Source: Parcubacteria group bacterium M6-OD1-4
GTDB taxonomy: Bacteria > Patescibacteriota > Patescibacteriia > Patescibacteriales > UBA12465
Assembly (NCBI GenBank): GCA_003056205.1
Contig: LSNS01000004.1
Location: forward strand, 124,630-188,629
Reading direction: 5' to 3'
Length of the DNA: 64,000 bases
Position numbers and translations under genes: made by a program. Positions 1 through 38,842 of the stretch are shown here, piece after piece. The stretch's first letter is position 1. Every line of letters starts with the position of its first letter. The notes below the pieces were generated by a model. That model was not told where the DNA came from and did not search any database. It saw only the letters and a list, made by a program, of their open reading frames with translations.

Positions 1-502
1 CATATTTATAAGTTTCTCGGGCTTCTAAATATTTTTTCTGCCCAACATATAATTCAGCGAGATTAAAAAAAGCTGATAAATTCTTTTGATCTAATTTAAT
101 AATTTCTAGTAATTTTTTTTCCGCTAAAGCGTCATCTTCCTTTTTCAAAGACTCTTGGGCAATAAGTTTTAAATTCTTAATCCGCTTTTGTTTTTCTGAC
201 CAGGGAATTTTAATATTAGCCTGACAATTAGCTTTTATTTTTTCTAAATTTGTCTGTTGATTTTGCAAAAACTCAGTGGAATAGCGTTTAATGAATAACA
301 AAAACCTTCCTAAAAATCCGCTCCAACGTTCAAGATCACGTTGCACCCGACTTTTAATAATTTGCTGTTTAAATTTAGTTTCTTTCTCTCCCAAAATATC
401 AGTAACATTAAGAATGGCTAAGGCTGGAAATTTTTTAATAATAATTATTAAAATTACCAAGGCCGCCAGAATAATTAAGATAAGAGAAATTATATTGAAC
501 AT
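1..502 (-). CDS. Partial CDS (C-terminus lies beyond the window start): single N-terminal TM anchor followed by a helical, TPR-like region
   Basis: Absent from the ORF track because there is no stop inside the window. The reverse-strand ATG at 502..500 opens an uninterrupted frame to position 2 (167 codons): MFNIISLILIILAALVILIIIIKKF...LAELYVGQKKYLEARETYKY. The start overlaps the last 13 nt of tpiA. The + strand ORF 291..512 is its low-complexity shadow. Confidence 0.5.
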   Translation of the reverse strand, partial: MFNIISLILIILAALVILIIIIKKFPALAILNVTDILGEKETKFKQQIIKSRVQRDLERWSGFLGRFLLFIKRYSTEFLQNQQTNLEKIKANCQANIKIPWSEKQKRIKNLKLIAQESLKKEDDALAEKKLLEIIKLDQKNLSAFFNLAELYVGQKKYLEARETYKY

Positions 503-1230
503 ATTGAACTAAACTCTTTAATCTGTAAGGCGGCCGCTCCAATTAATAAGCCGTCAATATTTTTTTGCGCTAAAAAGTCAGCCGCATTCTGATCATTAAC
601 ACTACCACCATATAAAACCGCAATCTTTTTCTTTAAAATCCTTTGCGCCTTTTTTTTGATAAAAGTTTGAATCCGATCCGCTTCACTAGCTAAGATAGGC
701 CGGGCAGCATGGTTTGTACTAATCGCCCAAATTGGTTCATAAGCAATAATTAAATCACGAGCTCTTTTAATTTTAATTCCTTTTAAAGCGCGATGTAATT
801 CGGAATTCAAATAGCTTTCCGCTTCACCGTTGTTTCTCTCTGTTAGCTTCTCCCCAATACAAAGAATCGGAATAATTCCTTGGCTTAAAGCAACCCGAAT
901 TTTAGCATTAATAATTGCTGAATTTTCATGGAGATGATTGCGTCGTTCACTATGCCCCAGAATAACATATTTTACTCCCAACTGACGAAGATTAACGGCA
1001 GAAATCTCACCGGTATAAGCTCCAAATTCAGCGACCGCCGAGTCCTGAGCCCCGAGAGCGATAAAAGTTTTTTTTAATAAGGGGCTGATTAAAACTAAAG
1101 ATAAATAATCTGGACAAATCACAATTTGCGCCGAAGAAAACTTTAATTGCTGAAGCATTTTTTTAGTTAAGGACAAACTATCTTTGATATTTAATTGCAT
1201 TTTCCAATTAGCAACAATCATTTTTTTCAT
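490..1230 (-). CDS. tpiA: Triosephosphate isomerase
   Basis: N-terminus VANWKMQ, then GHSERR and IAYEPIWAIST motifs; length 246 aa. Confidence 0.95.
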   Translation of the reverse strand: MKKMIVANWKMQLNIKDSLSLTKKMLQQLKFSSAQIVICPDYLSLVLISPLLKKTFIALGAQDSAVAEFGAYTGEISAVNLRQLGVKYVILGHSERRNHLHENSAIINAKIRVALSQGIIPILCIGEKLTERNNGEAESYLNSELHRALKGIKIKRARDLIIAYEPIWAISTNHAARPILASEADRIQTFIKKKAQRILKKKIAVLYGGSVNDQNAADFLAQKNIDGLLIGAAALQIKEFSSICSI

Positions 1231-4481: not shown

Positions 4482-4916
4482 ATGTATATCTACATCCTTT
4501 GTCCAATAATCGCTTTCGTTATTGCTCAAGGTCTAAAAACAATTTTACATTCTTTTAAGCATAAAATAAGCTGGCGAGATATTTTTGCTTATTCCGACAT
4601 GCCCTCTGGTCATACCGCTGTGGTAATTTCTTTAGTAGTTATTTTGGGTTTAAGATTAGGCTTAAGTTCACCAATTTTTGCCACCGCCGTGGTCTTTGCG
4701 CTCATTGTTATCGTGGATGCTATTGGTCTCAGAAATTATCTTGGTCAACATGGTAAAACTTTAAATATTTTAGTAAAAGATTTAAAAGAAGATGAGTTTT
4801 TAGATCGAAGCTACCCCGAATTATTAGAACATATCGGACATACTCCTCTGCAAGTCATCATCGGTTTCTTAATTGGTGCCTTAACTAGTCTTGTGGCATT
4901 TTATTTATTTTTCTAA
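4482..4916 (+). CDS. Divergent PAP2 / DUF212 (acid phosphatase/vanadium-haloperoxidase-related) membrane protein
   Basis: 144 aa and multi-TM. The MPSGHTAVV motif resembles the GGMPSSHSA signature of the DUF212 family. It lies 4 nt after gyrB. Confidence 0.65.
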   Translation: MYIYILCPIIAFVIAQGLKTILHSFKHKISWRDIFAYSDMPSGHTAVVISLVVILGLRLGLSSPIFATAVVFALIVIVDAIGLRNYLGQHGKTLNILVKDLKEDEFLDRSYPELLEHIGHTPLQVIIGFLIGALTSLVAFYLFF

Positions 4917-4941: not shown

Positions 4942-4971
4942 AAAATCAGGTTAGTAATTAACCTGTTTTTT
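4942..4971. terminator. Bidirectional rho-independent terminator between convergent genes
   Basis: Stem CAGGTTA (4947-4953) pairs with TAACCTG (4959-4965) around a 5-nt loop. An A-run lies upstream and T6 downstream. Confidence 0.6.
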
Positions 4972-5014: not shown

Positions 5015-5938
5015 TTAAGTTGATTTCTTCTCTAACAAACTTTTACCAGTCATGTCTTCGCTGGGGTTTAGACCCAGAATATTTAAAATAGTTGGTGCTA
5101 AATCAGCAAGCGTTCCCGCCGGAGCTAAAGAACTTAAATCATTATTTAAAGGATCAACCAAGCCAATTGTCTTCCCTCTAAATTCGGAACCAACAATAAT
5201 AACTGGTACGGGATTGTTAATCTGATAATTATCTAATAAACCAGTTTCCGGATTATGAATTTGTTCAGCACCACCACCAGCAGCCGAAATAATTAAGACA
5301 CCATTTTTAGCGTTAAGAGCTTTGAGAATAAGATGAAATCCTTTGTCAATAATTTCAATTGCTTGTTGGAGCCCTAGAAAATCACTTTTTTGCGCTAATA
5401 AATCTAAGACGGGGAGAGCTAATACCAAAAGATCAAGATTCTTCTCGAGTTTAATCGCTTGAATAGCCTCTTGAATACTTTCTTGAAGAGTCACTAAAAC
5501 TTGCTTACCAGATGAACCATCTACAGAAGGAATAAGGCGTAATTCTTCTTGGGGATATTTTTGATCAGAAGCTCCATTAAAAAAATAAGTTAAAGCTGCC
5601 AAACGCTCAACAACGGTAATTTTGATTTGTTTTAACTTAGCCTGGGCTAAAATTGAACTTAAACTAAAACGAGTTTTTTGCTTTTCGTCGAGAATCTCTT
5701 GCCCCGTGCCAATACTCTGATAACGAGCATTCCAACTTAAGGCTGATGAACTGAGAAGAGCGACTGGATATTTATTAATTAAATCATCAAAAACTGGAGT
5801 CGGGGTATCAACAATGGCATTTTCTTGATTAGCTGAAGCAATCCCCCAACCATCAATTAATAATAAAACTACCGGCCTTGATAATAAGGGAGGTTCATCG
5901 CTATGAGAATTAGAATTTAAAGTATTTTGAGCAGACAT
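5015..5938 (-). CDS. Truncated, ligand-depleted homolog of cofactor-independent phosphoglycerate mutase (phosphatase domain only)
   Basis: Segments recalling iPGM: VVLLLIDGWGIA (LIILDGFG), ERLAALTYFFNGA...EELRLIPS ([9 protein letters not shown].GG...ERILI.SP), NNPVPVIIV, GTLADLAPTILNILGL..DMTGKSLL. It is 307 aa against about 510 aa, so the central transferase domain is missing. Confidence 0.6.
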   Translation of the reverse strand: MSAQNTLNSNSHSDEPPLLSRPVVLLLIDGWGIASANQENAIVDTPTPVFDDLINKYPVALLSSSALSWNARYQSIGTGQEILDEKQKTRFSLSSILAQAKLKQIKITVVERLAALTYFFNGASDQKYPQEELRLIPSVDGSSGKQVLVTLQESIQEAIQAIKLEKNLDLLVLALPVLDLLAQKSDFLGLQQAIEIIDKGFHLILKALNAKNGVLIISAAGGGAEQIHNPETGLLDNYQINNPVPVIIVGSEFRGKTIGLVDPLNNDLSSLAPAGTLADLAPTILNILGLNPSEDMTGKSLLEKKST

Positions 5939-5941
5939 AAA

Positions 5942-7192
5942 TTATTTAATAAGCTCCGCAATCTTCAATAAACGATTATACTTAGCTACTCGTTCACCAC
6001 GAGAAAGCGAACCAGCTTTGAGATAATTAGCACCCGTGGCAACGGCTAAGTCAACAATAAAATCATCATTACTTTCATCACTGCGTTGGGAAATAATAAT
6101 TTGATAATGATGTTGTTGAGCAAGTTGCAGACAAGCAATAGTTTCTGTGATTGTTCCAGTTTGATCAGGTTTAATTATTATTGCATTAGCAGCTTGTTCT
6201 TGAAGACCCTGGCTTAAACGACGACGGTTAGTAGTAAATAAATCATCGCCAACAATTAAGATTTTTTGACCAAGTTCCTTAGTAAGTTCACGCCAAGCTG
6301 CCCAATCGTTGATTGCTAAGGGGTCTTCTAAATAGATTAAGGGATACTTTTTTAACCATTCATGATATAAGCCAATTAAATTACTAGAACTAAAATAAGC
6401 GTGGTCTAAGGGAAAAACGTATTTTTTTTCTTTTTCTTCATAGAGAACTGAGGAACCAATATCAATCCCGAGATGTAAATCTTGACCCGGTTGGTAGCCA
6501 GCACGAATAGCGGCCGCCAGAATAAATTCTAAAGCTTCCAAACTAGAATCTAAGTTAGGAGCATAACCACCTTCAACGCCAGTATCAGTATCATAACCAG
6601 ATTCATGGAGAACTAAACCCAACTCTTTAAAAATCTCCGCTCCCATTCTCACCATCTCGGAAGCAGATTGCAATTTAGGTATTAATAAAAACTCTTGAAA
6701 ATCTAAATTAGTATCAGAATGTTTTCCACCATTAAACATATTAAAGAGAGGCTGGGGAATCCGTGGTGAAGCTAAGGAAAAAGTATCTTGTAAATAAACA
6801 AATAATTCCTGCTTTTTACTCTGAGCAGCTACCCGAGCGACAGCCAAGGAGACCGCCAGAATAGAATTTGCTCCTAAGTTACTTTTATTGGTGCTAGCAT
6901 CAAGGTCAATTAAAATTTGATCAATATTTTTTTGAGCAGTTACTTTCTGACCTTGGAGAGCAGGGGCGATAATTTCTTCAATTTTTTTAACTGCCTGCAA
7001 AACTCCTCGTCCACCATAGCGTTGTGAATCATGATCCAATAAATCCCAAGCCTCATAATCTTCAGTAGAAGAGGCACTCGGAACACTGGCTTGAGCTGTC
7101 AAACCATTATCCAAAGAAATTTGAACTTCAATTGTCGGCAAACCGCGAGAATTTAATATTTCTCGAGCTTGAATTGTTTTAATTTTTGCCAT
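5942..7192 (-). CDS. eno: Enolase (divergent)
   Basis: REILNSRGLPTIEV, NGGKH...FQEF, GVEGGYAPN, YLEDPL, IVGDDL, IIIKPDQTGTITET and KAGSLSRGERVAKYN. The SHRSGETED motif reads SQRSDESND. Confidence 0.9.
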   Translation of the reverse strand: MAKIKTIQAREILNSRGLPTIEVQISLDNGLTAQASVPSASSTEDYEAWDLLDHDSQRYGGRGVLQAVKKIEEIIAPALQGQKVTAQKNIDQILIDLDASTNKSNLGANSILAVSLAVARVAAQSKKQELFVYLQDTFSLASPRIPQPLFNMFNGGKHSDTNLDFQEFLLIPKLQSASEMVRMGAEIFKELGLVLHESGYDTDTGVEGGYAPNLDSSLEALEFILAAAIRAGYQPGQDLHLGIDIGSSVLYEEKEKKYVFPLDHAYFSSSNLIGLYHEWLKKYPLIYLEDPLAINDWAAWRELTKELGQKILIVGDDLFTTNRRRLSQGLQEQAANAIIIKPDQTGTITETIACLQLAQQHHYQIIISQRSDESNDDFIVDLAVATGANYLKAGSLSRGERVAKYNRLLKIAELIK

Positions 7193-7196: not shown

Positions 7197-8375
7197 TTAT
7201 TTACTAACTATTTTACTCAAACCAGGCATGAGACCACCACCCAGATAGGTCAACATTGCTCCCCCCGCTGTAGAAATCCAATCCACATAACGAGCCATCT
7301 TGGTTAATTTAAGAGCTTCAACTGTATCCCCACCGCCAACCAAACCATAGGCCCGCCCCGAAGAACGAGCAGCGATTAAAGTTGCCGTTGCCACGGTTCC
7401 CTGGCGAAAACTCTTTTCTTCAAATTTACCAAGTGGTCCATTCCAAACTAGCGTAGCCGCTGTTTTAATACGCGTGGCAAAATCAGCAATTGTCAGTGGA
7501 CCAATATCAAAGATAGTATCACTCGCATCCACTTCAGTAGTTTTAATAACTCGCGTCTGGTGTTTCTTGGTTTCAACCACCAGATCACGAGGTAAAATAA
7601 TTTTTGGCACAATCTTTCCTCGTCGAAAAAGTTTTTTTACTATTTTCTGATCTCGGTCAGCGACTAAAGAACGACCAATTTCTAAACCTTGGAATTTAAA
7701 GAAATTATTCGCCAAAGCACCACCAATTAAAATCCAACTCGCACGCGGATAGAGCTTTAAAATTAATGGCAATTTAGTTTCTAATTTAGCTCCGCCCATA
7801 ATAATCACCAGGGGTTTTTTGGGGAGAAGAATTCGATTTAACGCTTTAACTTCCTGTTCTAATAAGAGTCCTGCATAAGATGGTAAAAACTTTTTGATGG
7901 CGGAAATTGAGGCTTGAAACCGATGAGAAACAGCAAAAGCATCATTAACATAAAGATCAGCTAAAGAAGCTAAACGAGCCGCAAATTTTGGACTATTCTG
8001 ATATTCACCAGAGTAAAAACGAAGATTTTCCAAAAAAACAATTTCTCTCGGTTTCATTCGTTTAATTGCCTGACGAGTAGCAGAATTAATTCCTCCTGGT
8101 AAAAACTTTACTTTTTGTTTTAAAATTTGTGCTAAGCGTCGAGCCAGCGGTCGAGTGGAATAAATTAATTGGGATTTAGAACTCGGCCTGGCCAGATGAG
8201 TCGCAATAATTATTTTCGCTCGATGATCTTGTAAAAATTCAATACTGGCTAAAGCGACTCGAATCTTATAATCTTCTTTAATGCGACCAGAACTAAACGG
8301 AACATTAAAATCAACTCGCAAAAAGACAGTTTTATTTGCTAAATTTTTAACTTTTCTAATAGAATTAATTTTCAT
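7197..8375 (-). CDS. pgk: Phosphoglycerate kinase
   Basis: VFLRVDFNVP, HLARP, NDAFAVSHR, VWNGPLG.FE and GGGDT motifs; 392 aa. Confidence 0.95.
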   Translation of the reverse strand: MKINSIRKVKNLANKTVFLRVDFNVPFSSGRIKEDYKIRVALASIEFLQDHRAKIIIATHLARPSSKSQLIYSTRPLARRLAQILKQKVKFLPGGINSATRQAIKRMKPREIVFLENLRFYSGEYQNSPKFAARLASLADLYVNDAFAVSHRFQASISAIKKFLPSYAGLLLEQEVKALNRILLPKKPLVIIMGGAKLETKLPLILKLYPRASWILIGGALANNFFKFQGLEIGRSLVADRDQKIVKKLFRRGKIVPKIILPRDLVVETKKHQTRVIKTTEVDASDTIFDIGPLTIADFATRIKTAATLVWNGPLGKFEEKSFRQGTVATATLIAARSSGRAYGLVGGGDTVEALKLTKMARYVDWISTAGGAMLTYLGGGLMPGLSKIVSK

Positions 8376-8382
8376 AATTTTA

Positions 8383-9576
8383 TTATTTTAATTTTCCCAA
8401 CTTAATCTCTGCAGTTTTCTCCCGACCCTGACGATTATAAGTCAAAGTAATAGTCTCTCCAGCCTTATAATTACTCAATAAATCTGCCAAATCATGACGG
8501 GAATCAATTTTTTGATTATTAACCCAGGTAATGATATCTCCGGCTCGTAAACCAGCCACCGCCGCTGGACTATTTTTCAAAACAGCCGGTCCTTGCGTAC
8601 CAGAATGTAACCAAGCTCCTTGACTCAATTTAATTCCCAAAGCTTTAATCAAACTAAGATTTAAATAGTTAACCCCTAAGAAAGGTTTCGTGGCCGGAGT
8701 ATTTTGCACTAAGGACGACCAAATAGTTTGATAAGAAAACGCGGGAATAATTTTTTGTTGAGAATTAATAATTGCGACCAAATCTCCTGCTAAATTGAAA
8801 ACAAAAGAATTTTTGAATTTACTATTATCACCATTAGTTAAATTTAAATTAGCACTCAAAACATCACTATTAGAAACTAGCGATTTCCGGACCAGAGAAG
8901 TTAAGACGGAGGGTTGAATAGTGGCCATTCCTTGAAAAATTAATAAACTTTGTCCAAGACTTAAATCAGAACGAGCAACTATTTTTTTAGTAGGTAAATT
9001 AGCAGCACCCTGGAGATGTAAAAGCATCAAAGCCCCAGGTGATTTTTGAAGATAAATAAAACGATCAATCTGATATGAATGACGATTATTGCCAATGACG
9101 GTATAATTCTTAAATTTGAAATTCCCAGCCAGATTACTAGGCGCCAAAGCTAAAACCCAACCATCAGCGGTAATAATTAATCCGGTAAACAAAGGATGGT
9201 CTAAACGATAATAAGTTGCTGAGGATTGACTATTTATTTTCGAATGGGAATTATTATTCAAAACCGCTGAAGTTTGTTTTGTACTAGAGCTAGAAATAGT
9301 TTTGAAAATACCCACTAAGCTGGGTCGGATACTACTAATAGTTTCACTAACTTTAACATCTTGATTAACAATTACTTTCTGGGGATTACGAATAACTAAA
9401 CCTAAATTATTATTATTTAGATTAGCCAGATTAAGCTCACTGGCAGAATAAGAAAAACTTGGGAAAATATAGACTTGGGTTAAAATAGACCCGAGGACAC
9501 CAGCAAAAAGACCACCAATTACAATTAGAATAATAGTCGTCCAAAAATTTCGATCGGGTTTGGATAAATTAGACAT
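8383..9576 (-). CDS. Membrane-anchored HtrA/S1C-like protein with a C-terminal PDZ domain; catalytic triad not evident
   Basis: N-terminal TM segment (FWTTIILIVIGGLFAGVLGSIL). Central region resembles the S1C fold (GLIITADGWVLA..., FNLAGDLVAIIN). The PDZ domain is clear (AVLKNSPAAVAGLRAGDIITWVNNQKI...GETITLTYNRQGREKT). Confidence 0.6.
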   Translation of the reverse strand: MSNLSKPDRNFWTTIILIVIGGLFAGVLGSILTQVYIFPSFSYSASELNLANLNNNNLGLVIRNPQKVIVNQDVKVSETISSIRPSLVGIFKTISSSSTKQTSAVLNNNSHSKINSQSSATYYRLDHPLFTGLIITADGWVLALAPSNLAGNFKFKNYTVIGNNRHSYQIDRFIYLQKSPGALMLLHLQGAANLPTKKIVARSDLSLGQSLLIFQGMATIQPSVLTSLVRKSLVSNSDVLSANLNLTNGDNSKFKNSFVFNLAGDLVAIINSQQKIIPAFSYQTIWSSLVQNTPATKPFLGVNYLNLSLIKALGIKLSQGAWLHSGTQGPAVLKNSPAAVAGLRAGDIITWVNNQKIDSRHDLADLLSNYKAGETITLTYNRQGREKTAEIKLGKLK

Positions 9577-9580: not shown

Positions 9581-10354
9581 TTAAAGCCAACGAGCAGTTA
9601 AAAATAATAATAAAATAGCGATGATGGTTAAAACGAGAGGGAGTTTTAGGGTACGACGATTTAAACTATGACTGTTATCTAAGCGAAGAATCATTAAGCC
9701 TAAATAATAAATAATGGCTAAAAATAGGGCTAAAATATTAAAGTTAAGAGGGAGCAAAGAAAAAACCCAGGCAAACTCAGTTAAAATTAAAGCATTAATC
9801 AAACTTAAACCCCCAACTGGCCAATCTTTTTGAGATTTTAGGGGTCGAAACTGAACAAATAGCAACCAACTAATTATTGCTAAAATAGTCAGACTTAGAT
9901 AGAGAGGCCAAGTAATAAAAGCGGAAAGATGAAACAAGACGGCGGCGGTCGCAAAGGCAATTAGAAAACTTCCAGAAATTAAAAGATTATCTAATTTAGT
10001 TCCCCATTTTGTTTCTGCTTCGGTCCCTAAAAGATGAAGGGAATAATAATAGAAATCTCGTAAATACAGAAAAATAAAAATAGTAATTAATAGATAAATT
10101 AACTGAATCCAAAAATTACTAATAACAATGGCCGCATAAAAAGAAAAACTTAGTAAAAACAAAACTGGAAAAATAATAAATAATAACCAATATTTTTTAC
10201 TATGGTTATTAAGATAGCGGACACTTAAAACTACTAATAATATTTCTAAAATAAGGATGATATAAAAAAACTGTGGTGACCATAAAACAAACTCAGCTAA
10301 AAACCAAATAGCGAGGGCGGTAAATAAAGGAATAAAACGTTGATATTTTGTCAT
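9581..10354 (-). CDS. Polytopic integral membrane protein, function unknown
   Basis: 257 aa and almost entirely hydrophobic helices. Tightly packed in the operon (gaps of 4 nt and 9 nt). Confidence 0.55.
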   Translation of the reverse strand: MTKYQRFIPLFTALAIWFLAEFVLWSPQFFYIILILEILLVVLSVRYLNNHSKKYWLLFIIFPVLFLLSFSFYAAIVISNFWIQLIYLLITIFIFLYLRDFYYYSLHLLGTEAETKWGTKLDNLLISGSFLIAFATAAVLFHLSAFITWPLYLSLTILAIISWLLFVQFRPLKSQKDWPVGGLSLINALILTEFAWVFSLLPLNFNILALFLAIIYYLGLMILRLDNSHSLNRRTLKLPLVLTIIAILLLFLTARWL

Positions 10355-10363
10355 AAAATAATT

Positions 10364-12727
10364 TTAAGGTTGAGTATTGCTCGCCGCACTTGAACTTGAA
10401 GTGGCTGCAGGATTGGAAATTCGACTAGGAACTAGTGGCACTGCAGCCGGCGAAGAACTTGCGGAACTAGTGCTGTTTGAACTACCGGGAGTAGTCAGTG
10501 GACTAGAAGGGGAATTTTTATTAAGCAAATTTAAAGTACTAGTTGATGATGAAGCAGAACTTTCAACGGGTATGAAAAAATAATTATTATTAAGAGTCGC
10601 TAATTTAATAGTCGCCAAGGATTTGAAATTTGTTAAATTGTTGATTTTAAGAAACTCATTAGAGAGAGTAATTAAATTATCTCCCACTATTAAACTCCGC
10701 TGAACAGTATTATGATAATAATTAATTCCATTCCAAGAGTCTTGCGGGCTAAATTGACCGGGAACAAAATGTTTAATTTTAGTTTGAAGACTAATTTTAT
10801 TACTCGCAACATTAAAAACAAAAGAACCAATAAAACTTAAATTATTATTCTGATTATGCTGATTAAATGGTAAAACTAACAAATTTCGAGTAGGAGAATA
10901 TAATAAGGCTTGATGATCTTGAAAAGCAATGGAATTACCAGTCGCTTTGCTAATTAAATAACTGGATAATTCCTGAGGCTTATTCAAATTAGAGAAATCA
11001 AATAACGACCAGGTTAGGCCCTTGGCACTCGTCCCGTCACTATAAGAAACCTCTCCTTGACGACTGAGAACGGCAAACTTAGTTCCATTAGCATCCAAGG
11101 CTTGTAAATAGTTGTCAGTCCCCGGAATTTGAATCGCTCCTAAAACTACAGGCTGGTGAAAATTAGCCAAACTAATGACAAATAGCGGATCTTGCGATTT
11201 AGAAGTAATAAAATACAAACGATTTCCCAAAAAACTAACATTAATAATTTTCTGAGTGGTCATCAAATTTTGTAAACTACCAACAATTTTCAATTGCGAA
11301 TCTAGAACATAAACATTGGTATAATAATTGTCTCCCTTTTTATTTAAATTTAAAGCCAGCGGATTACTGTTGGTGACTAAACGTAAGTAATCGCCACTCT
11401 GATTTAAAGCAGCTTGAGCGAAAATTGTGCCCCGAACTTCTGCCGAATTCTGATAAGTTAGCTGATCATTCTTAATGATGAATTTATAAAGAAAAGTTTT
11501 GTCTTGAGATTTAAAAGCCTGAATAAATTTTTGTTGAGTAATACTGGTAATTAATTTTTGCCAAGTTTTCTGTGAAGCGTCCCCTAAAGATGCTAAATAA
11601 TTATCCAAAATTTGCGTAATTTTAAGTCTCTTTTCATTATTAGTTAACAAAAATTGAGGACTTAAAGTAATCTTATTAATTTCGGTTTGAATTTTGGAAC
11701 CTAATTTTGAATAAAGTAATTTTTGTTTGGCTTGTTGTTCAAGACGATAATAGTTAGGAAACTGAGAATAAGTAATATATAGACCATTAGAACTTAAATA
11801 AAATTTCTGTTGATTGTTGGCTAAATAAACTTCTCCACTTAAGGCTTGAGTATTGTCTAGCATATTAATCGTCGTCACACTGGTGAAATTATAGGAAGAA
11901 TAAGGAATATTAAAATAATAAATTGTCGGGGTAAAACAGTTTGCCAGATCTACACAGTCATTAGATAATATCTGACCATTATTTAAAATTCGTGGTAATA
12001 GCGGTTCAGATGGTAAATAAGATACTGGGATTCTAGTAATAAAATAAAGATTATGACCAATCAAACGAGCTTTTAAATAGTGCCCTTCAAAGCTCAGATT
12101 ACGAGTCTCTTTAGGTTGAGCAGGATTGCTGAGATCAAAAATCTTCAAAAAAGTATAAATATTCTGACGTCGGAAATTCTGATAAATTGCTTGTTGTGAA
12201 ATTTGGGTATCTTGACCATAGATTGCCAAGAAGTTCCCTGACAAAATCATCGCCTGCGGATGAGATTTAAAAATAATTTTACTAACAATTTTAGCCGCTG
12301 AAGCTGGTGAAGTATTAATAATAAACAACTCGTTACGCACTAAAGCATAAACATAATTACCATTGCTCTGAATAGTATTAGCTGACCCAGCAACTAGCTT
12401 AGTTGTTTCCGGCCAAGCCCTTAAATAATTATTAGGAACATTGCGATGAGAATCAAGCGCCAGACTTGAAGATGTTGAAAAACTACTAGTTAAAGGACGA
12501 TGATTATTTAAAAACTCTGCCAATTTAGAATAATTTTTAAATTTTTCAATTTTATTATTATAAATAATCGCTGGAGTAGTTGTGGAAATAATAGTTGCCG
12601 ATTTAAGCGGAGTTTTGACAGAAGTGGGGGTGGTCTTTTTCGGACTTGTTAAAGAAAAAGAGCAAGCGCTAGTTGTTAAAGCTACTACCCCTAATATTAT
12701 AAATAAGATGAAAAATCTTTTCGACAT
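10364..12727 (-). CDS. Putative lipoprotein with a beta-propeller-type extracellular domain and a Ser/Thr/Pro-rich C-terminal tail
   Basis: Signal peptide with a lipobox-like LTTSAC. The long Asn/Ser/Tyr-rich body has repeated strand-like segments reminiscent of the secreted 'beta propeller domain' family (from memory). The C-terminal ~70 aa are SSASSSTST...SSPAAVPLVPS...SSSSAASNTQP. Confidence 0.5.
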   Translation of the reverse strand: MSKRFFILFIILGVVALTTSACSFSLTSPKKTTPTSVKTPLKSATIISTTTPAIIYNNKIEKFKNYSKLAEFLNNHRPLTSSFSTSSSLALDSHRNVPNNYLRAWPETTKLVAGSANTIQSNGNYVYALVRNELFIINTSPASAAKIVSKIIFKSHPQAMILSGNFLAIYGQDTQISQQAIYQNFRRQNIYTFLKIFDLSNPAQPKETRNLSFEGHYLKARLIGHNLYFITRIPVSYLPSEPLLPRILNNGQILSNDCVDLANCFTPTIYYFNIPYSSYNFTSVTTINMLDNTQALSGEVYLANNQQKFYLSSNGLYITYSQFPNYYRLEQQAKQKLLYSKLGSKIQTEINKITLSPQFLLTNNEKRLKITQILDNYLASLGDASQKTWQKLITSITQQKFIQAFKSQDKTFLYKFIIKNDQLTYQNSAEVRGTIFAQAALNQSGDYLRLVTNSNPLALNLNKKGDNYYTNVYVLDSQLKIVGSLQNLMTTQKIINVSFLGNRLYFITSKSQDPLFVISLANFHQPVVLGAIQIPGTDNYLQALDANGTKFAVLSRQGEVSYSDGTSAKGLTWSLFDFSNLNKPQELSSYLISKATGNSIAFQDHQALLYSPTRNLLVLPFNQHNQNNNLSFIGSFVFNVASNKISLQTKIKHFVPGQFSPQDSWNGINYYHNTVQRSLIVGDNLITLSNEFLKINNLTNFKSLATIKLATLNNNYFFIPVESSASSSTSTLNLLNKNSPSSPLTTPGSSNSTSSASSSPAAVPLVPSRISNPAATSSSSAASNTQP

Positions 12728-13848: not shown

Positions 13849-16533
13849 TTATAACTTAACTGCTTTAGCTATATTCACTTTAGCCTGAGAGTTAATAATA
13901 ACAGTATCGCGACGTTTTAGCTGACCAGCAAGAATTTTATTGGCGATAATGTCTTCTACTTTATTTTGTAATAAACGCCGTAAAGGACGAGCGCCAAATT
14001 TTGGATCATAACCTTCTTGAGCTAGAAGACGAACACCATCTTTATCAGCTTTAAGGTTAATGCCCTTTTTACTAAGATTCTTTTTAATCTTTTTCAACAT
14101 TAAAGTGGTCACGGCGACAGTGTCTTCTGGGGTTAATGGTTTAAAAACAATAATTCCATCAAAACGATTAATTAATTCTGGGCGTAAATACTTATTTAAT
14201 TGATTATTAATTAATTCCTGTTGAATTAAATTAATAGCTATTTGAGCTTTAATTTGTTCTTGAATATAAACCGCACCGATATTAGAAGTAGCAATAATGA
14301 TTGACTCGGAAAAACTAATTGTTCGTCCTTGACCATCAGTTAAACGACCATCATCTAATAACTGTAAAAATAGATTTAAAATATCGGGATTAGCTTTTTC
14401 AATTTCGTCTAATAAAATAAGAGAAAATGGTTTCTTACGAACAGCTTCAGTCAAATATCCGAGAGTGCCATCAACATCACCGATCATCTTTCGCACACTA
14501 TCAGCTGACTGATATTCACTCATATCTAAACGAATTAGATAATCCTCATCCCCAAAATAGACTTCGGAAATTGACTTTGCTAATTCGGTTTTTCCAACTC
14601 CAGTTGGTCCTAAAAATAAGAAACTAGCAATTGGTCGTTTACTGTCTTTGAGTTCGGCCCGGGCTCGTCGCAGAGAGGCAGACACCGCCTTCACTGCTTC
14701 ATCTTGACCAATTAAACGTCGATGGATTTCTGTTTCTAAATTTAACAATTTTTTGCTTTCAGAGGCAGTTACTTTACTCACTGGAATACCAGTTAATTCA
14801 CTAATGGCAGCCGCCACTTCTTCGCGGTCACAAAAACCAGACTCAGGATTATTCTGTAATTTATTGGCAGTAACAATGGCCGCTTTTTCTAATAAATCAA
14901 TCGCTTTTGAGGGCAAAAATTTATCATGTAAATAACGAGCCGAGAGATTAACTGCCGCTTCCAAGGCTCCATAGACAATATAAACATTATATTTTGCTTC
15001 GAAAATTCCGACCTTACTCTCCAACATTTGAATAGCACCATTAGTATCTGGCTCATTGATACCAATAGTGGTTAAAGCATTACCTAAGGGTTTTCCCTCA
15101 ATATAGCGAGTATAGTTCTCAGTAGTGGCTGCTGCTAAACAATAGAGAGCTCGACGTTCTAAAGCATCAGCTAAGACCTCAGACAGATCTAGGCTCTCTT
15201 CCCCACCAGAACTAATGCCAATTAAATTTTCAATATTATTAATGTAAAGAATAATATTACCAGAACGATTAATCTCATTTAAACTCGACAACAAACGTTC
15301 TTCAGCCTCACTAGCATCAGCCCCAGCAACAATTCGCGGAATATCTAGTTCCACCAAACGCTTATCTTTTAAGAAACTGGGGACATTTTCCTCCACCATT
15401 AATTGGGCTAAACCACCAACAATAGTATTCCGCCCTACTCCCGTGGAACCCACTAATAAGACACCACTATGTCCGCCAGTAAAAGCTTCAAAAATCTTTT
15501 GTAATTCTTGATCACGTCCAATACAAACATCTAAAACACCTTGTTTGGCTGAAATTGTTAAATCATGAGAAAAATGATCAAGAGCCGGAGTCGCAATTGC
15601 CGTATAGGCGCGATTCATATTATTACCCGGTTTCAGAATTGCTAAACGTCGGTAATTATGATAATTAGCAACTAATTTTTTATTCACTCTAAACCAGGCA
15701 ACAGTATTAATAATTTTAGCCTCATTAATTTTTAACTCATCGAGAATTTCGGCCAACAGTACATCGCGAGCATAACAAAAAGAAATGATGTTGAGTGGAT
15801 CAACACTCTGCTGTTTAAGTTGATAGGCATCAACAAAAGCTAAAACCAAGACTTCCTGAAGAGCTAAAGACAGGTTTTGTGGATTAGACTTTTTAGTCTG
15901 ACGGGGATTAAGAAGATGATGATCAATTAAATTAACTAATTTCTGAGCATCCACATTCAAGCGAATAAATAAATTTTGAATTTCTTTATTTTTTAACAGA
16001 GCTCGGAATAAATGGATAATTTCAACTTGCTCTTGGCGCAAACGATTAGCTAATGAATAGGCATCTTCAATAATAGCTTGACTAAGCGGAGAATAAGCTT
16101 GAGCAACATCATATTTTTTACTCGTCTTAGTATTGTTCTTGACCTTACTAAACAAACGGAAATTGATTTTTTTCAAAGCAATTTTTTCTTGACTAAAACG
16201 ATAAATAATAAACAGATCAAACCATAAAGATAATAAGAAAAATAAAATTAGGGGACTGGGACGCCGCCAAAAGAATAATAAACTAAAAGGATTGGCTAAA
16301 ATAAGTGCTTGTTCCCGAAAAACCCACAGCCCAAATAAAAACCATCCTCCAAAAATAATCAGCCAAACAATAAAAATAAAAAAACGATCAAATTGCTGAC
16401 GACTTCGTTCTAAGTTAATAATGGACCGCTTCAGAGTTCGTCCCCAAAACAAAAAACGTCCTGAAAACCAGGTACCTCGACCACCACGATCTTGTTCATC
16501 GGTAAAAATTAATTTATCAGCGTCCATATTCAC
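13849..16533 (-). CDS. Hsp100/Clp-family AAA+ ATPase with N-terminal TM segments, a degenerate D1 and an intact D2
   Basis: D2 is canonical: [42 protein letters not shown]1 is degenerate: GSTGVGRNT, ILYINNIENL. Clp-N-like repeats follow two hydrophobic N-terminal segments. There is no long M-domain. Confidence 0.85.
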   Translation of the reverse strand: MNMDADKLIFTDEQDRGGRGTWFSGRFLFWGRTLKRSIINLERSRQQFDRFFIFIVWLIIFGGWFLFGLWVFREQALILANPFSLLFFWRRPSPLILFFLLSLWFDLFIIYRFSQEKIALKKINFRLFSKVKNNTKTSKKYDVAQAYSPLSQAIIEDAYSLANRLRQEQVEIIHLFRALLKNKEIQNLFIRLNVDAQKLVNLIDHHLLNPRQTKKSNPQNLSLALQEVLVLAFVDAYQLKQQSVDPLNIISFCYARDVLLAEILDELKINEAKIINTVAWFRVNKKLVANYHNYRRLAILKPGNNMNRAYTAIATPALDHFSHDLTISAKQGVLDVCIGRDQELQKIFEAFTGGHSGVLLVGSTGVGRNTIVGGLAQLMVEENVPSFLKDKRLVELDIPRIVAGADASEAEERLLSSLNEINRSGNIILYINNIENLIGISSGGEESLDLSEVLADALERRALYCLAAATTENYTRYIEGKPLGNALTTIGINEPDTNGAIQMLESKVGIFEAKYNVYIVYGALEAAVNLSARYLHDKFLPSKAIDLLEKAAIVTANKLQNNPESGFCDREEVAAAISELTGIPVSKVTASESKKLLNLETEIHRRLIGQDEAVKAVSASLRRARAELKDSKRPIASFLFLGPTGVGKTELAKSISEVYFGDEDYLIRLDMSEYQSADSVRKMIGDVDGTLGYLTEAVRKKPFSLILLDEIEKANPDILNLFLQLLDDGRLTDGQGRTISFSESIIIATSNIGAVYIQEQIKAQIAINLIQQELINNQLNKYLRPELINRFDGIIVFKPLTPEDTVAVTTLMLKKIKKNLSKKGINLKADKDGVRLLAQEGYDPKFGARPLRRLLQNKVEDIIANKILAGQLKRRDTVIINSQAKVNIAKAVKL

Positions 16534-17080: not shown

Positions 17081-19717
17081 ATGTTTAATAAATTTACCGA
17101 TAAATCACAAGAAGCGATTATCAATTCGCAAGTTATTGCTTCAAATTATGGTCAAGCAAATATTGAGGCCCTCCATATTCTCTTAGCTTTATTACAACAA
17201 AGTGAGAGTCTGATAAAGCCCGTCCTCGAGAAAATGAAAATTGATCCAGAAATAATTGAAGAATACACATTGAAAGCGATTCAAAGATTACCGAGGATAA
17301 AAATTGACCCCCAAACTGGACCGCTCCAGGCGGTTTCGGGAACAGCCGAGACGGCTTTAATTTTAGAACGAGCTAAAAAAGAAGCCGACGGCATGAAAGA
17401 TGAATTTGTTTCTACAGAACACATCATGTTAGCTTTAATTGGTATTAGTTCCCCAGCCCAAGAAGTTCTCTTAAACTTCAAAGTAGAATATCAAACGGTA
17501 AAAAATATTCTCAAAGATCTCCGCGGATCGCAAACTATTACTGATCCTTTTCCAGAAAATAAATACAAAGTTTTAGAAAAATACACTACAAATCTAACTA
17601 AACTAGCGCACCAAGAAAAACTTGATCCAGTTATTGGACGAGATCAGGAGATTCGGAGAATTATGCAGGTTCTACTCCGTCGAACAAAGAATAATCCAGT
17701 TTTAATTGGTGAAGCGGGAACTGGAAAAACCGCTATTGTAGAAGGTTTAGCTCAACGAATTGTGGCTGGCGATGTTCCTGAGAATTTAAAAAATAAAGAA
17801 ATTGTTACTCTTGATTTAGGAGCTTTAGTCGCTGGTGCTAAATTTCGTGGTGAATTTGAAGACCGTTTGAAAGCGGTTTTGAAAGAAGTTAAATCACAAA
17901 ACGGTAAAATAATTCTATTTATTGATGAATTACATACTTTAATTGGAGCCGGTGGTTCTGAAGGAGCAATTGATGCCTCTAACATGTTAAAACCGGCTTT
18001 AGCACGAGGTGAATTGCGAACAATTGGAGCAACTACTACTAAAGAATACCAAAAATATATTGAACGGGATGCCGCTTTAGAACGACGTTTCCAACCTATT
18101 TATGTTAAAGAGCCCAGTATTGATGACGCGATCAGCATGTTACGGGGTTTAAAAGAAAAATATGAAGTTCATCATGGAGTGCGAATTACTGATAATGCTT
18201 TAATCACGGCAGTTAAGCTCGCTGACCGCTATATTAGTGATCGTTTCCTACCAGATAAAGCAGTGGATTTAATTGACGAAGCAACTTCTTCTTTACGTAT
18301 GGAAATTGATTCCATGCCTGATGAATTAGATCAATTAAAGCGCAAAATAAATCAATTAAAATTAAATAAAGCTGGCTTGGAAACCAATAATAAGAAATCA
18401 CCAAAACTACGTCCATTAAAAATAGAATTAGCGGGTTTAAAGGAAAAAGCGGATCAATTAGAATTACATTGGAATAATGAAAAAAATATTATCTCCCAAA
18501 TTCGCAATTCTAAAAAAGAAATAGAAGATTTGAAAATTAAGGCTGAAATTGGTCAACGCCAAGGAGCAGACTTAACGGAGGTGGCTAAAATTAAATATAG
18601 TTTAATTCCTCATCTTGAAAATAAAATTAAAGAATCACAAGAAGAATTATTAAAAATTCAAAATAAAGGACAACGAATTCTTAAAGAGGAAGTTGACGAA
18701 GAAGATATTGCTAAAGTTGTTGCCCGCTGGACTGGTATTCCGCTCAATCGGATGCTACAAGATGAAATCAGAAAATTAAGTAATATCGAAAATGAACTGG
18801 GACAAGAAATCATCGGACAAGATGACGCTATCAAAGCCGTCGCCAACGCTCTCCGTCGTAGTCGAGCCGGAATTAATGAAGAAAAAAAACCAATTGGATC
18901 TTTTATGTTTGTTGGTCCATCAGGAGTTGGTAAGACAGAATTAGCGAAAGCTTTAGCTCGTTTTATGTTTGATGATGAAAAAGCTTTAATTCGCTTAGAC
19001 ATGAGTGAATTTATGGAAAAACACTCCGTTGCTAAATTAATTGGTTCCCCTCCGGGTTATGTCGGTTATGACGAAGGAGGACAATTAACTGATAAAGTTC
19101 GCCGCCGACCATATAGTGTGGTTCTCTTTGATGAAATTGAAAAGGCTCATCCTGACATGTTTAACATGTTGCTACAGATTCTCGATGATGGACGCCTGAC
19201 AGATTCTAAGGGACGGGTAGTTAATTTTAAGAATACTATCATTATCATGACTTCCAATTTGGGAAATGAAATTATTAAACAGTATTCCATCGGTTTTTCG
19301 GATACTAATGATCAACCCAAAAATAGTAAATTACGAGAAAAAGAGATGCAAGAAAAAATTGATAAGATATTAAGAAAGAATTTTAAATTAGAATTCTTAA
19401 ACCGTATTGATGAAATTATTCTCTTTAAGAGCTTGGACCCTCAAGCCTTGGAAAAAATAGTAGACTTAGAAATACTAAAGGTAGAAAAAAGATTAAATAA
19501 TAAAAATATTACGGTTAAAGTTGGTTCAAAAATAAAAAAACTATTAGCTAAAAAAGGTTACGACATTACTTACGGTGCTCGTCCTTTAAAACGGATTATT
19601 CAAACTATGATCTTGGATGAGCTCGCAGTAGAAATTGTCAAAGGAAAGATAAAAGATGGTGATAAAGTAAAAATTAATCTCAATACTCAAGAAAAAGTAA
19701 GTTTAAAAATTAATTAA
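17081..19717 (+). CDS. clpB: Chaperone/disaggregase ClpB
   Basis: Two canonical AAA+ modules ([31 protein letters not shown]; [22 protein letters not shown]) and a long coiled-coil M-domain between them; 878 aa. Confidence 0.95.
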
Positions 19718-19773: not shown

Positions 19774-21246
19774 ATGAAATATCAAAAAACGATCATTATC
19801 TTAATCTTGTTTTGTGCTAGTATATTTTGGCCACAATTCTCTCACGCTCAACAATTTATCGACCCTAGTTTTAACCCGAATAAAATTATTGAAAATCATA
19901 AACTGCTAGATTACAATTCCATGAATCTCCAAGATATTGAGAATTTCTTAATTAGCAAAGGAAGTTTCTTAATTAATTACACCGCCTTCAATATTAATGG
20001 CCAACGAGAATCAGCTGCAAAGATTATTTATGATGCAACTCATAATAATTATGATTGCAGTGGAGCTGTCTTTAATTCTTCGCCAACAATAGCAGAAAAA
20101 AACGCTCAATGTCGACGAATTACTACTGTTAATCCAAAATTAATTTTGACTCTTTTGCAAAAAGAACAGGGTTTAATAGAAGATACCAATCCTTCACCAA
20201 GACGCTTAGATTGGGCAACAGGTTATGCTTGCCCAGACCGTTTAGTGTGTAATCCCTATTTTAAAGGCTTTGGTAAACAAGTAAATAGCGCAGCCCTACA
20301 ATTTCTGGACTACATGAAACATCCCCAGCACTATAATTATCAAGCTGGTAGAGCCTACACTATTTACAATACTCGCAACCCCTATACGAGTCGCCACAGC
20401 ATGACCGTCATTCCCCAAAACCAAGCCACGGCAGCGCTCTATGACTATACTCCTCATATTTTCAATGGAAATTATAATTTCTATAAAATATGGCAACGCT
20501 ATTTTCCAGAGATTACTCGTTTTTATCCTGATGGCTCAATTTTAAAAGTTAAAAAAGATCCACGAATTTGGTTGATTGAAAATAAGCAAAAACATCTTTT
20601 TGCTAATTGGTCAGCATTTATTTCTCGCTTCAGTCCCCGACAAATTGTTCAAGTCTCTAATAGTGTTCTGGCTCGTTATCCCTTAGGGACTGGCATTAAA
20701 TTTGCTAACTACTCGGTGGTACAAACACCAGATAAAAAAATATTTTTATTAGTAGATAAAAAGAAACGACCCTTTGTCAGTGAAGAGGTCTTTAAGAAAA
20801 TCGGCTTTAATCCCGGTGAATTAGAATCAGCGACAATGAGTGATCTACAAGACTATCAAACTGCTTCACCAATTACTGCAAGTTCTAGTTATGTAACTGG
20901 CGCTCTACTTGAAAACAATAAAACCCACAAAATATATTATGTCCAAAATGAAACTCGGGCCCTGGTTGATAAGATTCTTCTCCCACTCAAGTTTCCTTAC
21001 CAAAAAATTATTAAAGTCAGTCCCCAAAAACTACAACAGTATGCCACTACCAGTCAGATTCTATTAAATGAAGGGACCTTAGTAAAAACCACTAGTTTTC
21101 CCACAGTTTATCTAATTTCTGATGGAAAAAAACGACCATTTGCTAATCCAGAGATTTTTGCTAAATTAGGATATAATTATGATAATGTCATCGCCGTTTC
21201 TTCGCAATTCCTCTATAATTATAATATGGGTCAACCCATTAAATAA
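19774..21246 (+). CDS. Secreted protein: conserved N-terminal module plus four ~58-aa C-terminal repeats; function unknown (cell-wall associated?)
   Basis: Signal peptide ending in ...FSHA-QQ. Conserved block NPKLILTLLQKEQGLI...RRLDWATGYACPD...ATAALYDYTPH. Four repeats carry the pattern G.L.K......(I/V)(W/Y/F)L(I/V)...K(K/R)(R/H)(P/L)F......F...G(F/Y)N......V. Confidence 0.55.
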   Translation: MKYQKTIIILILFCASIFWPQFSHAQQFIDPSFNPNKIIENHKLLDYNSMNLQDIENFLISKGSFLINYTAFNINGQRESAAKIIYDATHNNYDCSGAVFNSSPTIAEKNAQCRRITTVNPKLILTLLQKEQGLIEDTNPSPRRLDWATGYACPDRLVCNPYFKGFGKQVNSAALQFLDYMKHPQHYNYQAGRAYTIYNTRNPYTSRHSMTVIPQNQATAALYDYTPHIFNGNYNFYKIWQRYFPEITRFYPDGSILKVKKDPRIWLIENKQKHLFANWSAFISRFSPRQIVQVSNSVLARYPLGTGIKFANYSVVQTPDKKIFLLVDKKKRPFVSEEVFKKIGFNPGELESATMSDLQDYQTASPITASSSYVTGALLENNKTHKIYYVQNETRALVDKILLPLKFPYQKIIKVSPQKLQQYATTSQILLNEGTLVKTTSFPTVYLISDGKKRPFANPEIFAKLGYNYDNVIAVSSQFLYNYNMGQPIK

Positions 21247-36493: not shown

Positions 36494-36982
36494 ATGAAAC
36501 AAAGTCATCAACGCCCCTCTTGGGATGAATATTTTATTAAAATAGTAGAAATGGTTGGTAGTCGTGGTACCTGCGATCGCGGTCGGGCAGGCTGTGTCAT
36601 CGCTCGTAATAGACGAATTGTGGCCACGGGTTATGCCGGGTCCCCTGTTGGCTTAGCACATTGTGATGATGCTGGGCATGAAATGCATACAGTTCTCAAT
36701 GAAGACGGTTCCACTAGTCGCCACTGTATCCGCACTACTCATGCGGAACAAAATGCTATTTGTGAAGCCGCCCGGATGGGAATTGCCTTAGAAGGAGGCA
36801 CCCTTTATTGTAAAATGACTCCCTGTTATACTTGTGCTAAAATGATTATTAATGCTGGTATTAAAAAAGTAGTCTGTGCTCAAGATTATCATTCTGGCCA
36901 ACGCAGTAAAGAGATATTCCAAGAAGCTAAAATAGATTTTGTTTTACTTAATAAAAAAATGACTAAATATACTGATCAATAA
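36494..36982 (+). CDS. Deoxycytidylate (dCMP) deaminase
   Basis: The zinc motifs HAEQNAI and PCYTCAKMI, plus the extra Cys/His cluster typical of dCMP deaminases; 162 aa. Confidence 0.9.
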   Translation: MKQSHQRPSWDEYFIKIVEMVGSRGTCDRGRAGCVIARNRRIVATGYAGSPVGLAHCDDAGHEMHTVLNEDGSTSRHCIRTTHAEQNAICEAARMGIALEGGTLYCKMTPCYTCAKMIINAGIKKVVCAQDYHSGQRSKEIFQEAKIDFVLLNKKMTKYTDQ

Positions 36983-36992
36983 TTTAAACTAT

Positions 36993-38282
36993 ATGGCTAA
37001 TATTTTTATCTACGATGAATTTAACCCTGAAGATTCAGCGATGCTCCAAGCCCTTTATTCTCGTAGCCCCCAAAGTGTCACGAAACACGTAGAAAAGGTG
37101 AAGCAAGGCGATTCGGGAAAATTTATGGAAACTTTTTATGTCGGTTATGGCCATGCTAGCATTGCGGACTGTGGCAGTACTACTATCTTTATTGAAGGAG
37201 TTAGCATTTTAGGTGACAAAGCTATCCAAGATTGGCAACTCTATAGCGGACAAGAAACCAGCACACGTTATATTGATATGGGACAACAAAAAATTATTGA
37301 CCCCATTAATTCTCCGGAATCAAAAAAAATTCTTCAGAACTGGATGGATTTTTATATCCAACACCAAGAAGAAGTACAAAATTATTTAAAAAACAAATAT
37401 CCTCGGAAAGAAGATGAGCAAGAAATAGTTTATAATAAAGCAATTAAAGCCCGTAGTTTTGATATAATGCGCGGATTTCTCCCCGCAGGTATTACCACTC
37501 AATTAAGTTGGCATACTAATTTACGTCAAGCCTGGGATCATCTAGTATTACTCCGCCATCATCCCTTAAACGAAGTACAAGAAATTGCCAAGAAAATACT
37601 TCAACAATTACAAACGAAATATGCCCATAGTTTTACTTTTACCCCGAGTGAAGAACAGAAAAATTATCGTGAAAAAACTGTAAAAGAATATACTTATTTT
37701 ACTCCTCAAGAAACAGGAGAATTTAAAATGACGACAACAATTAAGTTGGAAGAATTAAAGAAATACCAAGAAATACTGGACCAACGACCAGCCAAAACAA
37801 ATTTACCGAATTTTTTAGGTGATTTAGGAACTAATACTTTTAATTTCATTCTAGATTACGGCTCTTTTCGAGATATTCAGCGTCACCGTAATGGGATTTA
37901 TCGAATGCCACTACTGACGACAACCTTAGGGTTTAATTCTTGGTATTTAGAACAGCTTCCAGAAGTCCTGCGTTCTCAAGCTCAAGAATTAATTACTAAA
38001 CAACAATTAGCAATTAAAAATTTAGCAACAAGTCCAGAGATAAAACAATATTATATTGCAATCGGTTTTAATGTCGCTTGTCAATTTACCTTTTCCCTGC
38101 CCGCCTCTATTTATGTCACCGAACTGCGCTCCAATCGAACAGTTCATCCTTCTCTCAGAAAAATTGCTCATCAAATGCATCAGTCTTTAAAGGATTCTTT
38201 CCCAAATTTAACATTATATTCCGATTTGAAACCTGATGATTGGGATATTCGTCGGGGTTTAGCAGATATTATCAAAAAATAA
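36993..38282 (+). CDS. thyX: Flavin-dependent thymidylate synthase-like protein; tandem ThyX-ThyX fusion
   Basis: Half 1: GHASIADCGSTTIFIEGVS...QDW.LYSGQETSTRY and SWHTNLRQAWDHLVLLR....EVQEIA. Half 2: FNFILDYGSFRDIQRHR and FTFSLPASIYVTELRSNRTVHPSLRKIA. Both halves resemble the T. maritima ThyX core as I remember it. Context: dCMP deaminase, tmk, dut. Confidence 0.6.
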   Translation: MANIFIYDEFNPEDSAMLQALYSRSPQSVTKHVEKVKQGDSGKFMETFYVGYGHASIADCGSTTIFIEGVSILGDKAIQDWQLYSGQETSTRYIDMGQQKIIDPINSPESKKILQNWMDFYIQHQEEVQNYLKNKYPRKEDEQEIVYNKAIKARSFDIMRGFLPAGITTQLSWHTNLRQAWDHLVLLRHHPLNEVQEIAKKILQQLQTKYAHSFTFTPSEEQKNYREKTVKEYTYFTPQETGEFKMTTTIKLEELKKYQEILDQRPAKTNLPNFLGDLGTNTFNFILDYGSFRDIQRHRNGIYRMPLLTTTLGFNSWYLEQLPEVLRSQAQELITKQQLAIKNLATSPEIKQYYIAIGFNVACQFTFSLPASIYVTELRSNRTVHPSLRKIAHQMHQSLKDSFPNLTLYSDLKPDDWDIRRGLADIIKK

Positions 38283-38286
38283 AATT

Positions 38287-38841: not shown

Positions 38842-38842
38842 T

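Follow-up and report, generated by a model that had tools for sequence, protein, structure and literature searches.

A short, ligand-less relative of phosphoglycerate mutase under purifying selection in the pgk-eno operon of a Parcubacteria group bacterium, a candidate pseudoenzyme

What is a gene kept for when it stands in the mutase slot of a pgk-eno operon and its product has lost the machinery of a phosphoglycerate mutase (PGM), and which protein then converts 3-phosphoglycerate (3PG) to 2-phosphoglycerate (2PG)? The question is raised by a stretch of 64,000 nucleotides from Parcubacteria group bacterium M6-OD1-4 (contig LSNS01000004.1, positions 124,630 to 188,629; hereafter the window), which is AT-rich, with about 34% GC. 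The gene, hereafter X, is an open reading frame (ORF) of 307 aa on the minus strand (5015..5938), whose ATG lies 3 nt past the stop codon of eno, at the place and with the coordinates given in an earlier note on this DNA. The enolase gene eno (416 aa; 5942..7192, minus strand; TIGR01060, 503 bits) is directly upstream of X and is preceded by pgk (phosphoglycerate kinase, PGK, 392 aa; 7197..8375, minus strand), the first glycolytic gene of the cluster; both are well conserved and functional-looking. X derives from a 2,3-bisphosphoglycerate-independent PGM (iPGM), and the reading modestly favoured here, at a little better than even, makes it a pseudoenzyme that is maintained by selection and works non-catalytically with the glycolytic operon. 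By its gene content and closest relatives, the window belongs to the Patescibacteria, the candidate phyla radiation (CPR), with metagenome-assembled genomes (MAGs) of Falkowbacteria type.

The chemistry of iPGM needs a serine nucleophile, which forms a phosphoserine intermediate, a two-metal centre, and a transferase domain that holds and re-orients the glycerate (structures 1EJJ and 1O98). X is covered by PF01676 (Metalloenzyme) over residues 22-291 in one stretch (E=3.4e-28, 99.3 bits against a gathering threshold of 24.3), and it has no Pfam match to PF06415 (iPGM_N, the transferase domain). In a phmmer search of the Protein Data Bank (PDB), with E=2e-20, two blocks of X align with the Geobacillus stearothermophilus iPGM (1ejj), residues 20-64 to its residues 3-47 and residues 93-303 to its residues 317-510, which bears out the match to both halves of the phosphatase domain that the earlier note had drawn by eye; the motif pairs it quoted are all present in the sequence. 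Residues ~77-310 of iPGM are missing, as the note had also seen, and the transferase domain of ~230 residues is reduced to a linker of 12 residues (X residues 81-92; 5663..5698, minus strand), located at the insertion place of the PF06415 domain and predicted with a local confidence (pLDDT) above 90. The N-terminal phosphatase segment (X residues 22-80, iPGM ~5-76; 5699..5875, minus strand) holds D29 and the former nucleophile loop, and the C-terminal segment (X residues 93-303; 5030..5662, minus strand) holds R112, D179, Q183, A220/G221 and Q239.

Only two of the six metal ligands are kept in X, by phmmer with 1ejj and by MAFFT with Escherichia coli GpmM: D12 corresponds to D29 and D403 to D179, the two aspartates that had already been singled out by eye. 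H407, D444, H445 and H462 are replaced by Q183, A220, G221 and Q239, respectively, and K336 by R112. The loop that bears three ligands in iPGM (X residues 219-240; 5219..5284, minus strand) once bore D444, H445 and H462; it is ligand-less here and is the least confident internal stretch of the AlphaFold2 (AF2) model, with block pLDDT values of 76 and 58. The former nucleophile loop is SWNARY (X residues 68-73; 5720..5737, minus strand), in which Ser62 aligns to W69, Gly65 to R72 and His66 to Y73; this register, anchored on a conserved GxG, comes from MAFFT only, since HMMER left the loop unaligned to the PDB iPGMs with a single sequence or with a profile. Whatever the register, the family has no conserved Ser, Thr or Cys at X residues 68-70. 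The loss of Ser62 reported in the earlier note therefore stands, while its pairing of that serine with an asparagine is one residue off (W69, not N70, by MAFFT).

The AF2 model of X, built with 120 homologues, has a pLDDT of 86 and a predicted template modelling score (pTM) of 0.87. With this model, Foldseek places iPGM structures at the top (E ~1e-19, query-normalised TM ~0.78), with sulfatases, LTA synthase, phosphopentomutase and an archaeal homologue lower in the ranking; on the predicted fold, the likeness of X to iPGM is far beyond chance. Sequence score and alpha/beta core fold both place X in the PF01676 superfamily, and the metal-binding catalytic site of that superfamily is absent. 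Taken together, the ORF call, the PF01676 match and the AF2/Foldseek result describe an alkaline-phosphatase-like core without a functional metal site. The defining features of GpmI at the level of sequence, namely the two-domain architecture, the Ser nucleophile, the binuclear metal site and the equivalog score, are all missing: X scores 122.8 bits with TIGR01307 (the GpmI equivalog, cutoff 330.65) and 109.4 bits with NF003897 (cutoff 862).

X and the iPGM/GpmI enzymes (TIGR01307; 1EJJ, E. coli GpmM) thus share homology over both phosphatase-domain halves, an alkaline-phosphatase-type fold and the slot after eno, and X retains, in addition to D12 and D403, the ETE(K/R) strand and the FFNGG, GN-E, NPVP and DxAPT motifs. 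The differences are the lack of PF06415, the change of Ser62 to W, L or I, the four replaced ligands, the changes of His66 to Tyr and K336 to Arg, and an insertion of 15 residues. Phosphopentomutase (DeoB) and the archaeal ApgM have the same metalloenzyme core fold (Foldseek E ~1e-9, query-normalised TM 0.55-0.60), but they are far more distant, with cap domains of their own and intact metal sites; X reaches 11.2 bits with TIGR00306 (ApgM), whose cutoff is 320. Because nucleophile, metal centre and transferase domain are all missing, canonical iPGM mutase activity of X is excluded, as judged from the sequence. The earlier verdict that the occupant of the mutase slot looks catalytically dead as an iPGM holds for the whole family.

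Conservation was followed in a word-indexed search of 5.8 billion proteins, which gave 733 matches to X. The best 120 of these are 281-315 aa long and 43-54% identical, carry PF01676 only and all come from Patescibacteria MAGs; 22 positions are invariant across their alignment and 66 nearly so. None of these 120 relatives restores the missing ligands, and the equivalents of H407, D444 and H462 as well as a conserved nucleophile are absent, so that the intact Ser/His/Asp metal site that was looked for is not found among them. The position of Ser62 is L, W or I in 115 of the 120, and the family consensus at the H407, D444, H445 and H462 positions is A, A, G and M, respectively. In the nucleophile loop, the family never varies at N70 or Y73, and R72 reaches 94% conservation. 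The dN/dS ratio lies between 0.05 and 0.17 (Nei-Gojobori, eleven close pairs), and the word relic, used in the earlier note, is misleading for a gene under such strong purifying selection with so many constant positions. Two marks of a pseudoenzyme are present, loss of essential residues on one hand and purifying selection with conservation across species on the other, and the proposal of a pseudoenzyme, a scaffold or a repurposed protein looks likely.

The arrangement pgk-eno-short gene was found at 32 of 80 genome loci (one genome scanned per species, annotated by tblastn and hmmsearch), and it also occurs at further related loci that were inspected. The short ORF is intact, with 281-312 aa, at all 32 loci, where tpi lies 4-7 kb downstream; in the window, tpiA (triose-phosphate isomerase; 490..1230, minus strand) belongs to this conserved neighbourhood. 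No transferase-domain sequence lies within 10 kb on either side of the gene at the 32 loci. The identical 307-aa protein, with its neighbours, is found in GCA_003056195.1, GCA_006243105.1 and two assemblies derived from the Sequence Read Archive. The window protein departs from the consensus at conserved positions, with E109V and T110V (each in 1 of the 120), N223G and T240I (each in 3 of the 120), and W133L. Since the same sequence recurs in independent assemblies, the changes at 109, 110, 223 and 240 are a real lineage-specific drift at pocket positions. The window protein is alone among the 120 in having VV for the family E-T in the ETE(R/K) strand. As for the records themselves, many third-party (TPA) MAGs with the patescibacterial locus are titled 'uncultured Gammaproteobacteria bacterium' (L020, L022, L025, L031, L032 and others), and L037 is titled Saccharimonadales; such titles look mislabelled.

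The ancestry of X lies in a second iPGM paralogue. Searching 1.84 billion cluster representatives with a profile gave 6186 relatives, and the best 150 include short (~300 aa) and full-length (~520 aa) proteins in interleaved order. By their catalytic positions they are intact or degenerate, at full length as well as in the short form, which makes four classes; the short intact class includes some proteins with Cys for Ser. At least 14 CPR loci have a tandem pair of full-length iPGMs after eno, here iPGM1 and iPGM2, with every catalytic residue intact in both. These pairs (L047, L050, L052, L053, L057-L059, L061-L064, L066, L072, L076, plus L097) occur in genomes of ~1 Mb or less; both copies keep catalytic and substrate residues, and the second copy has the 15-residue insertion. 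This insertion, G-(K/R)-x-x-G...D-L-S-L, which in X reads G-K-T-I-G-L..D-P..D-L-S.L (residues 250-272; 5123..5191, minus strand), marks the CPR iPGM2 lineage; it was considered as a novelty of the short form and rejected, as full-length intact iPGM2 members have it as well. The window protein scores higher against iPGM2 (125 bits) than against iPGM1 (81 bits), and by this score, the common insertion and the position after eno, X is evidently a descendant of the CPR-specific iPGM2 and not of the housekeeping copy. The direct ancestor lineage (for example, L097 9601-11217, P0171 and P0175) differs from X in its full length of ~525 aa, its intact set of catalytic residues and its place beside iPGM1, whereas X is short, ligand-less and the only iPGM-like gene of its locus.

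Intermediates of this path are kept in neighbouring lineages. L097, a Rifle Falkowbacteria genome, has eno-iPGM1-iPGM2 with both copies intact (8001-9566 and 9601-11217). L013 has the order eno-x-iPGM1-iPGM2, in which iPGM1 is intact (529 aa) and iPGM2 is a short form of 303 aa with intact metal ligands and a Cys nucleophile (P0155, L013:8001-8912). L098 has the synteny of the window (GT4, QueH, PDZ protease, pgk, eno, X, DUF212, gyrB), and its X (P0258) is a full-length protein of 527 aa with S62L, H66Y, H407D, D444S, H445I and H462Y, which keeps 6 of the 7 substrate-contacting residues of the transferase domain. Full-length ligand-less forms of iPGM2 (P0258 in L098; P0146, P0193, P0197 and P0206) resemble X in the loss of nucleophile and metal ligands and in the change of His66 to Tyr, but their transferase domain is still present. 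Ligand loss would have preceded the domain deletion, because L098, with the same synteny, is full length and yet has a dead metal site. In the proposed order of events, iPGM1 would have been lost from the locus in the Falkowbacteria-type lineage of the window; iPGM2, still full length, would then have lost the Ser nucleophile and four of the six Mn ligands, and afterwards the ~230-residue substrate-holding transferase domain, by then useless. The neighbour-joining tree is a quick distance tree and was used only qualitatively, as long-branch effects may exaggerate the gradient that it shows between intact and degenerate forms. The series from tandem intact pair through short Cys form with intact metal site beside iPGM1 and full-length dead form to short dead form is a well-resolved natural example of the passage from enzyme to pseudoenzyme under extreme genome reduction. 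A search of the literature gave nothing on truncated or ligand-less iPGM, on tandem iPGM pairs in CPR or on Cys-nucleophile variants, and this iPGM-derived pseudoenzyme family, with its well-resolved evolutionary path, is undescribed in the searchable literature.

A side observation on the same lineage concerns the iPGM2-type proteins with complete metal ligands and Cys for the nucleophilic Ser, whose signature is DCHKDHDHH. They include short (P0155, P0179, P0185 and P0198) and full-length members (P0152, P0202, P0147 and P0167), and P0155 stands directly after an intact iPGM1.

The data establish the ancestry of X, its loss of domain and ligands, the selection on it and the conservation of the operon; the absence of activity and the partner or ligand are inferred. 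As to function, X is very probably a selected derivative of the paralogue, inactive as an iPGM; that it works with enolase or PGK is a more tentative proposal, with the balance somewhat against it. X, a core of alkaline-phosphatase type that is predicted to fold well and is under strong purifying selection, would most likely act non-catalytically with the enzymes of lower glycolysis; it could bind or regulate enolase and/or PGK as a subunit, or alternatively serve as a binding protein for a small phospho-metabolite via a remodelled pocket (D29, N70, R72, Y73, R112, D179 and E225). A binding or regulatory role would be the most economical one, because X is the last cistron of a conserved pgk-eno-X cluster, with dN/dS ~0.1, in genomes of ~0.6-1 Mb. 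The family-specific changes by the old site are E63N, G65R, H66Y, K336R and H339A (G. stearothermophilus numbering). Among cluster representatives, 26 of the 73 ligand-poor forms have Arg at the Gly65 position and 58 have Tyr at the His66 position; of the 78 ligand-rich forms, 0 have this Arg and 5 have this Tyr. We infer that Arg72 pairs with the two aspartates and fills the former metal site; its salt bridges to the surviving D29 and D179 would take the place of the metals and stabilise the fold.

Several points weigh against this reading. The correlation of Arg72 and Tyr73 with ligand loss could reflect shared ancestry and not compensation, and loss of the ancestral ligands is, for what a sequence can tell, no proof of lacking any activity. 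The site used by the family may be altered in the window protein itself, at E109V, T110V, N223G and T240I. Operon membership is the sole tie to enolase and PGK, and as gene order is generally conserved in the clade, adjacency is weak evidence of a physical interaction. If the genome had no other PGM, the presence of pgk and eno beside X would argue for a role in the 3PG/2PG step.

This last point leads to the mutase itself. A tblastn search of the 64-kb window with E. coli GpmA, GpmM and DeoB gave no other PGM (E. coli DeoB had no significant match), and 45 window ORFs compared with Pfam included no cofactor-dependent PGM (dPGM), further iPGM, ApgM or transferase domain; the 32 related genomes likewise have no other PGM at distances of up to 10 kb from the gene. 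A split gene with its transferase domain encoded nearby was considered and rejected on the same searches, by tblastn in the window and within 10 kb on either side in the 32 relatives. It could be imagined that Falkowbacteria-type CPR have no conventional PGM at all, which is judged improbable whichever of its variants is taken. In one, the short ligand-less protein, perhaps with enolase or PGK, would perform or channel the conversion of 3PG to 2PG by a mechanism other than the phosphoserine/two-metal one. In the other, pgk and eno would run around the missing mutase, for example by glycerate or host exchange, with X as an adaptor. If this were true, the inference of complete lower glycolysis would change across a large part of CPR.

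Other explanations of X meet the same evidence. It could be a neo-functionalised enzyme with a new metal-independent or differently liganded site, such as a phosphatase or phosphotransferase acting on a glycolysis-related or other substrate. Purifying selection and the many invariant polar residues of the pocket (D29, N70, R72, Y73, K106, E111, R112, D179, D198, E225 and D267) fit such an enzyme, and phosphatase-domain-only proteins are probably real enzymes in some lineages, because short forms with a complete metal site and Ser or Cys exist (P0192, P0210, P0155, P0179, P0185 and P0198). However, most of the remaining invariant residues are common to all iPGMs and for that reason look structural, the family alignment has no new invariant His, Cys or Ser, and the ligand and nucleophile positions have turned small or hydrophobic (A, G, L/W/I, M/I/L) with no alternative catalytic set. 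The window protein has moreover lost further conserved polar residues by the drift at 109, 110, 223 and 240, and an enzyme of this kind is held to be unlikely.

Still less probable is that X remains the phosphoglycerate mutase, by an unprecedented mechanism or in a complex with a protein that supplies substrate binding and catalytic groups. That at least 32 genomes conserve a pgk-eno-X operon with X in the slot of the mutase, beside functional-looking pgk and eno, speaks for this, as does the finding of no gpmA, gpmI, apgM or transferase-domain gene in the window or within 10 kb in relatives; a weaker sign is that the short-form contigs (0.16-0.91 Mb) match by size no contig bearing relatives of the L013 iPGM1, among the best 120 of 8000. 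Against it, the whole mechanism of iPGM is gone, with nucleophile, four of six metal ligands and glycerate-binding domain, the source lineage coexists elsewhere with an intact iPGM1, so that iPGM2 need not be the housekeeping mutase, and the apparent absence of a PGM rests on less than 10% of the genome. The idea of a non-functional remnant, whether a decaying pseudogene or a full-length gpmI spoiled by an error of assembly or sequencing, can draw on the lost catalytic apparatus and on the somewhat faster evolution of X, which on average shares 43% identity with its relatives, while the means for pgk, eno and tpi are 59%, 64% and 54%, respectively. It has hardly any probability: a deletion by assembly or sequencing is rejected by the identical protein in four independent assemblies and by 32 species genomes whose corresponding slot holds the short form, and a decaying pseudogene by the dN/dS values, the 22 invariant positions, the confident fold prediction and the intact ORFs at all 32 related loci and in more than 120 protein clusters. 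The selected, iPGM-inactive derivative of iPGM2 is the reading preferred over these.

The preferred reading bears on how such genomes are annotated. Members of the family are named '2,3-bisphosphoglycerate-independent phosphoglycerate mutase' by JGI and hypothetical by NCBI. A major survey of CPR metabolism (Jaffe et al. 2020, PMC7304191, Table S2) used a manual TIGR01307 cutoff of 92.9 bits, and it described PGM as patchy in Parcubacteria and possibly 'too divergent' for the thresholds of hidden Markov models. With 122.8 bits, the window protein would count as a PGM in that survey. A genome can thus be credited with complete lower glycolysis on account of a protein that cannot work as an iPGM. 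A non-enzyme of ~300 aa that is kept at dN/dS ~0.1 in genomes of ~0.6-1 Mb must do something important, and its partner or ligand, together with the presence of another PGM, bears on how CPR bacteria run lower glycolysis.

Around X, the gene order pgk-eno-X looks like one transcription unit with X last, judging by spacing and consensus scans only, and co-transcription and translational coupling of X with pgk and eno are probable. A terminator-like hairpin (4947..4965, readable on both strands), found by consensus scan only, lies between X and a convergent gene for a DUF212 (divergent PAP2) membrane protein (4482..4916, plus strand) and is the probable end of the pgk-eno-X transcript. A DUF212 gene is convergent to the iPGM2-type gene at every related locus with an annotated downstream flank (among them L013:15172-15603; L098:9593-10021; L099:1710-2159), with the exception that in L013 it lies ~6 kb further downstream, past two large genes. 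This adjacency spans distant lineages and occurs with an iPGM2-type gene that is short or full length, dead or intact; it may be plain synteny or a functional link.

Among the other genes of the window, four ORFs have no Pfam match at E<=0.001: 19774-21246 (plus strand, 490 aa), 43849-45618 (minus, 589 aa), 45703-47688 (plus, 661 aa) and 53826-54674 (minus, 282 aa). A compact cluster for pyrimidine deoxynucleotides (36494-39978, plus strand) encodes dCMP deaminase, a ThyX-like protein, a P-loop kinase, thymidylate kinase and dUTPase. Of the 429 aa of the ThyX-like ORF, residues 18-208 only form the Thy1 domain, and the C-terminal half of ~220 aa has no assigned domain. Two genes for Clp/Hsp100-type AAA+ chaperones of ~880-890 aa adjoin divergently at 13849-16533 (minus strand) and 17081-19717 (plus strand), and both have the domain set Clp_N, AAA, AAA_2 and ClpB_D2-small, in a very small genome.

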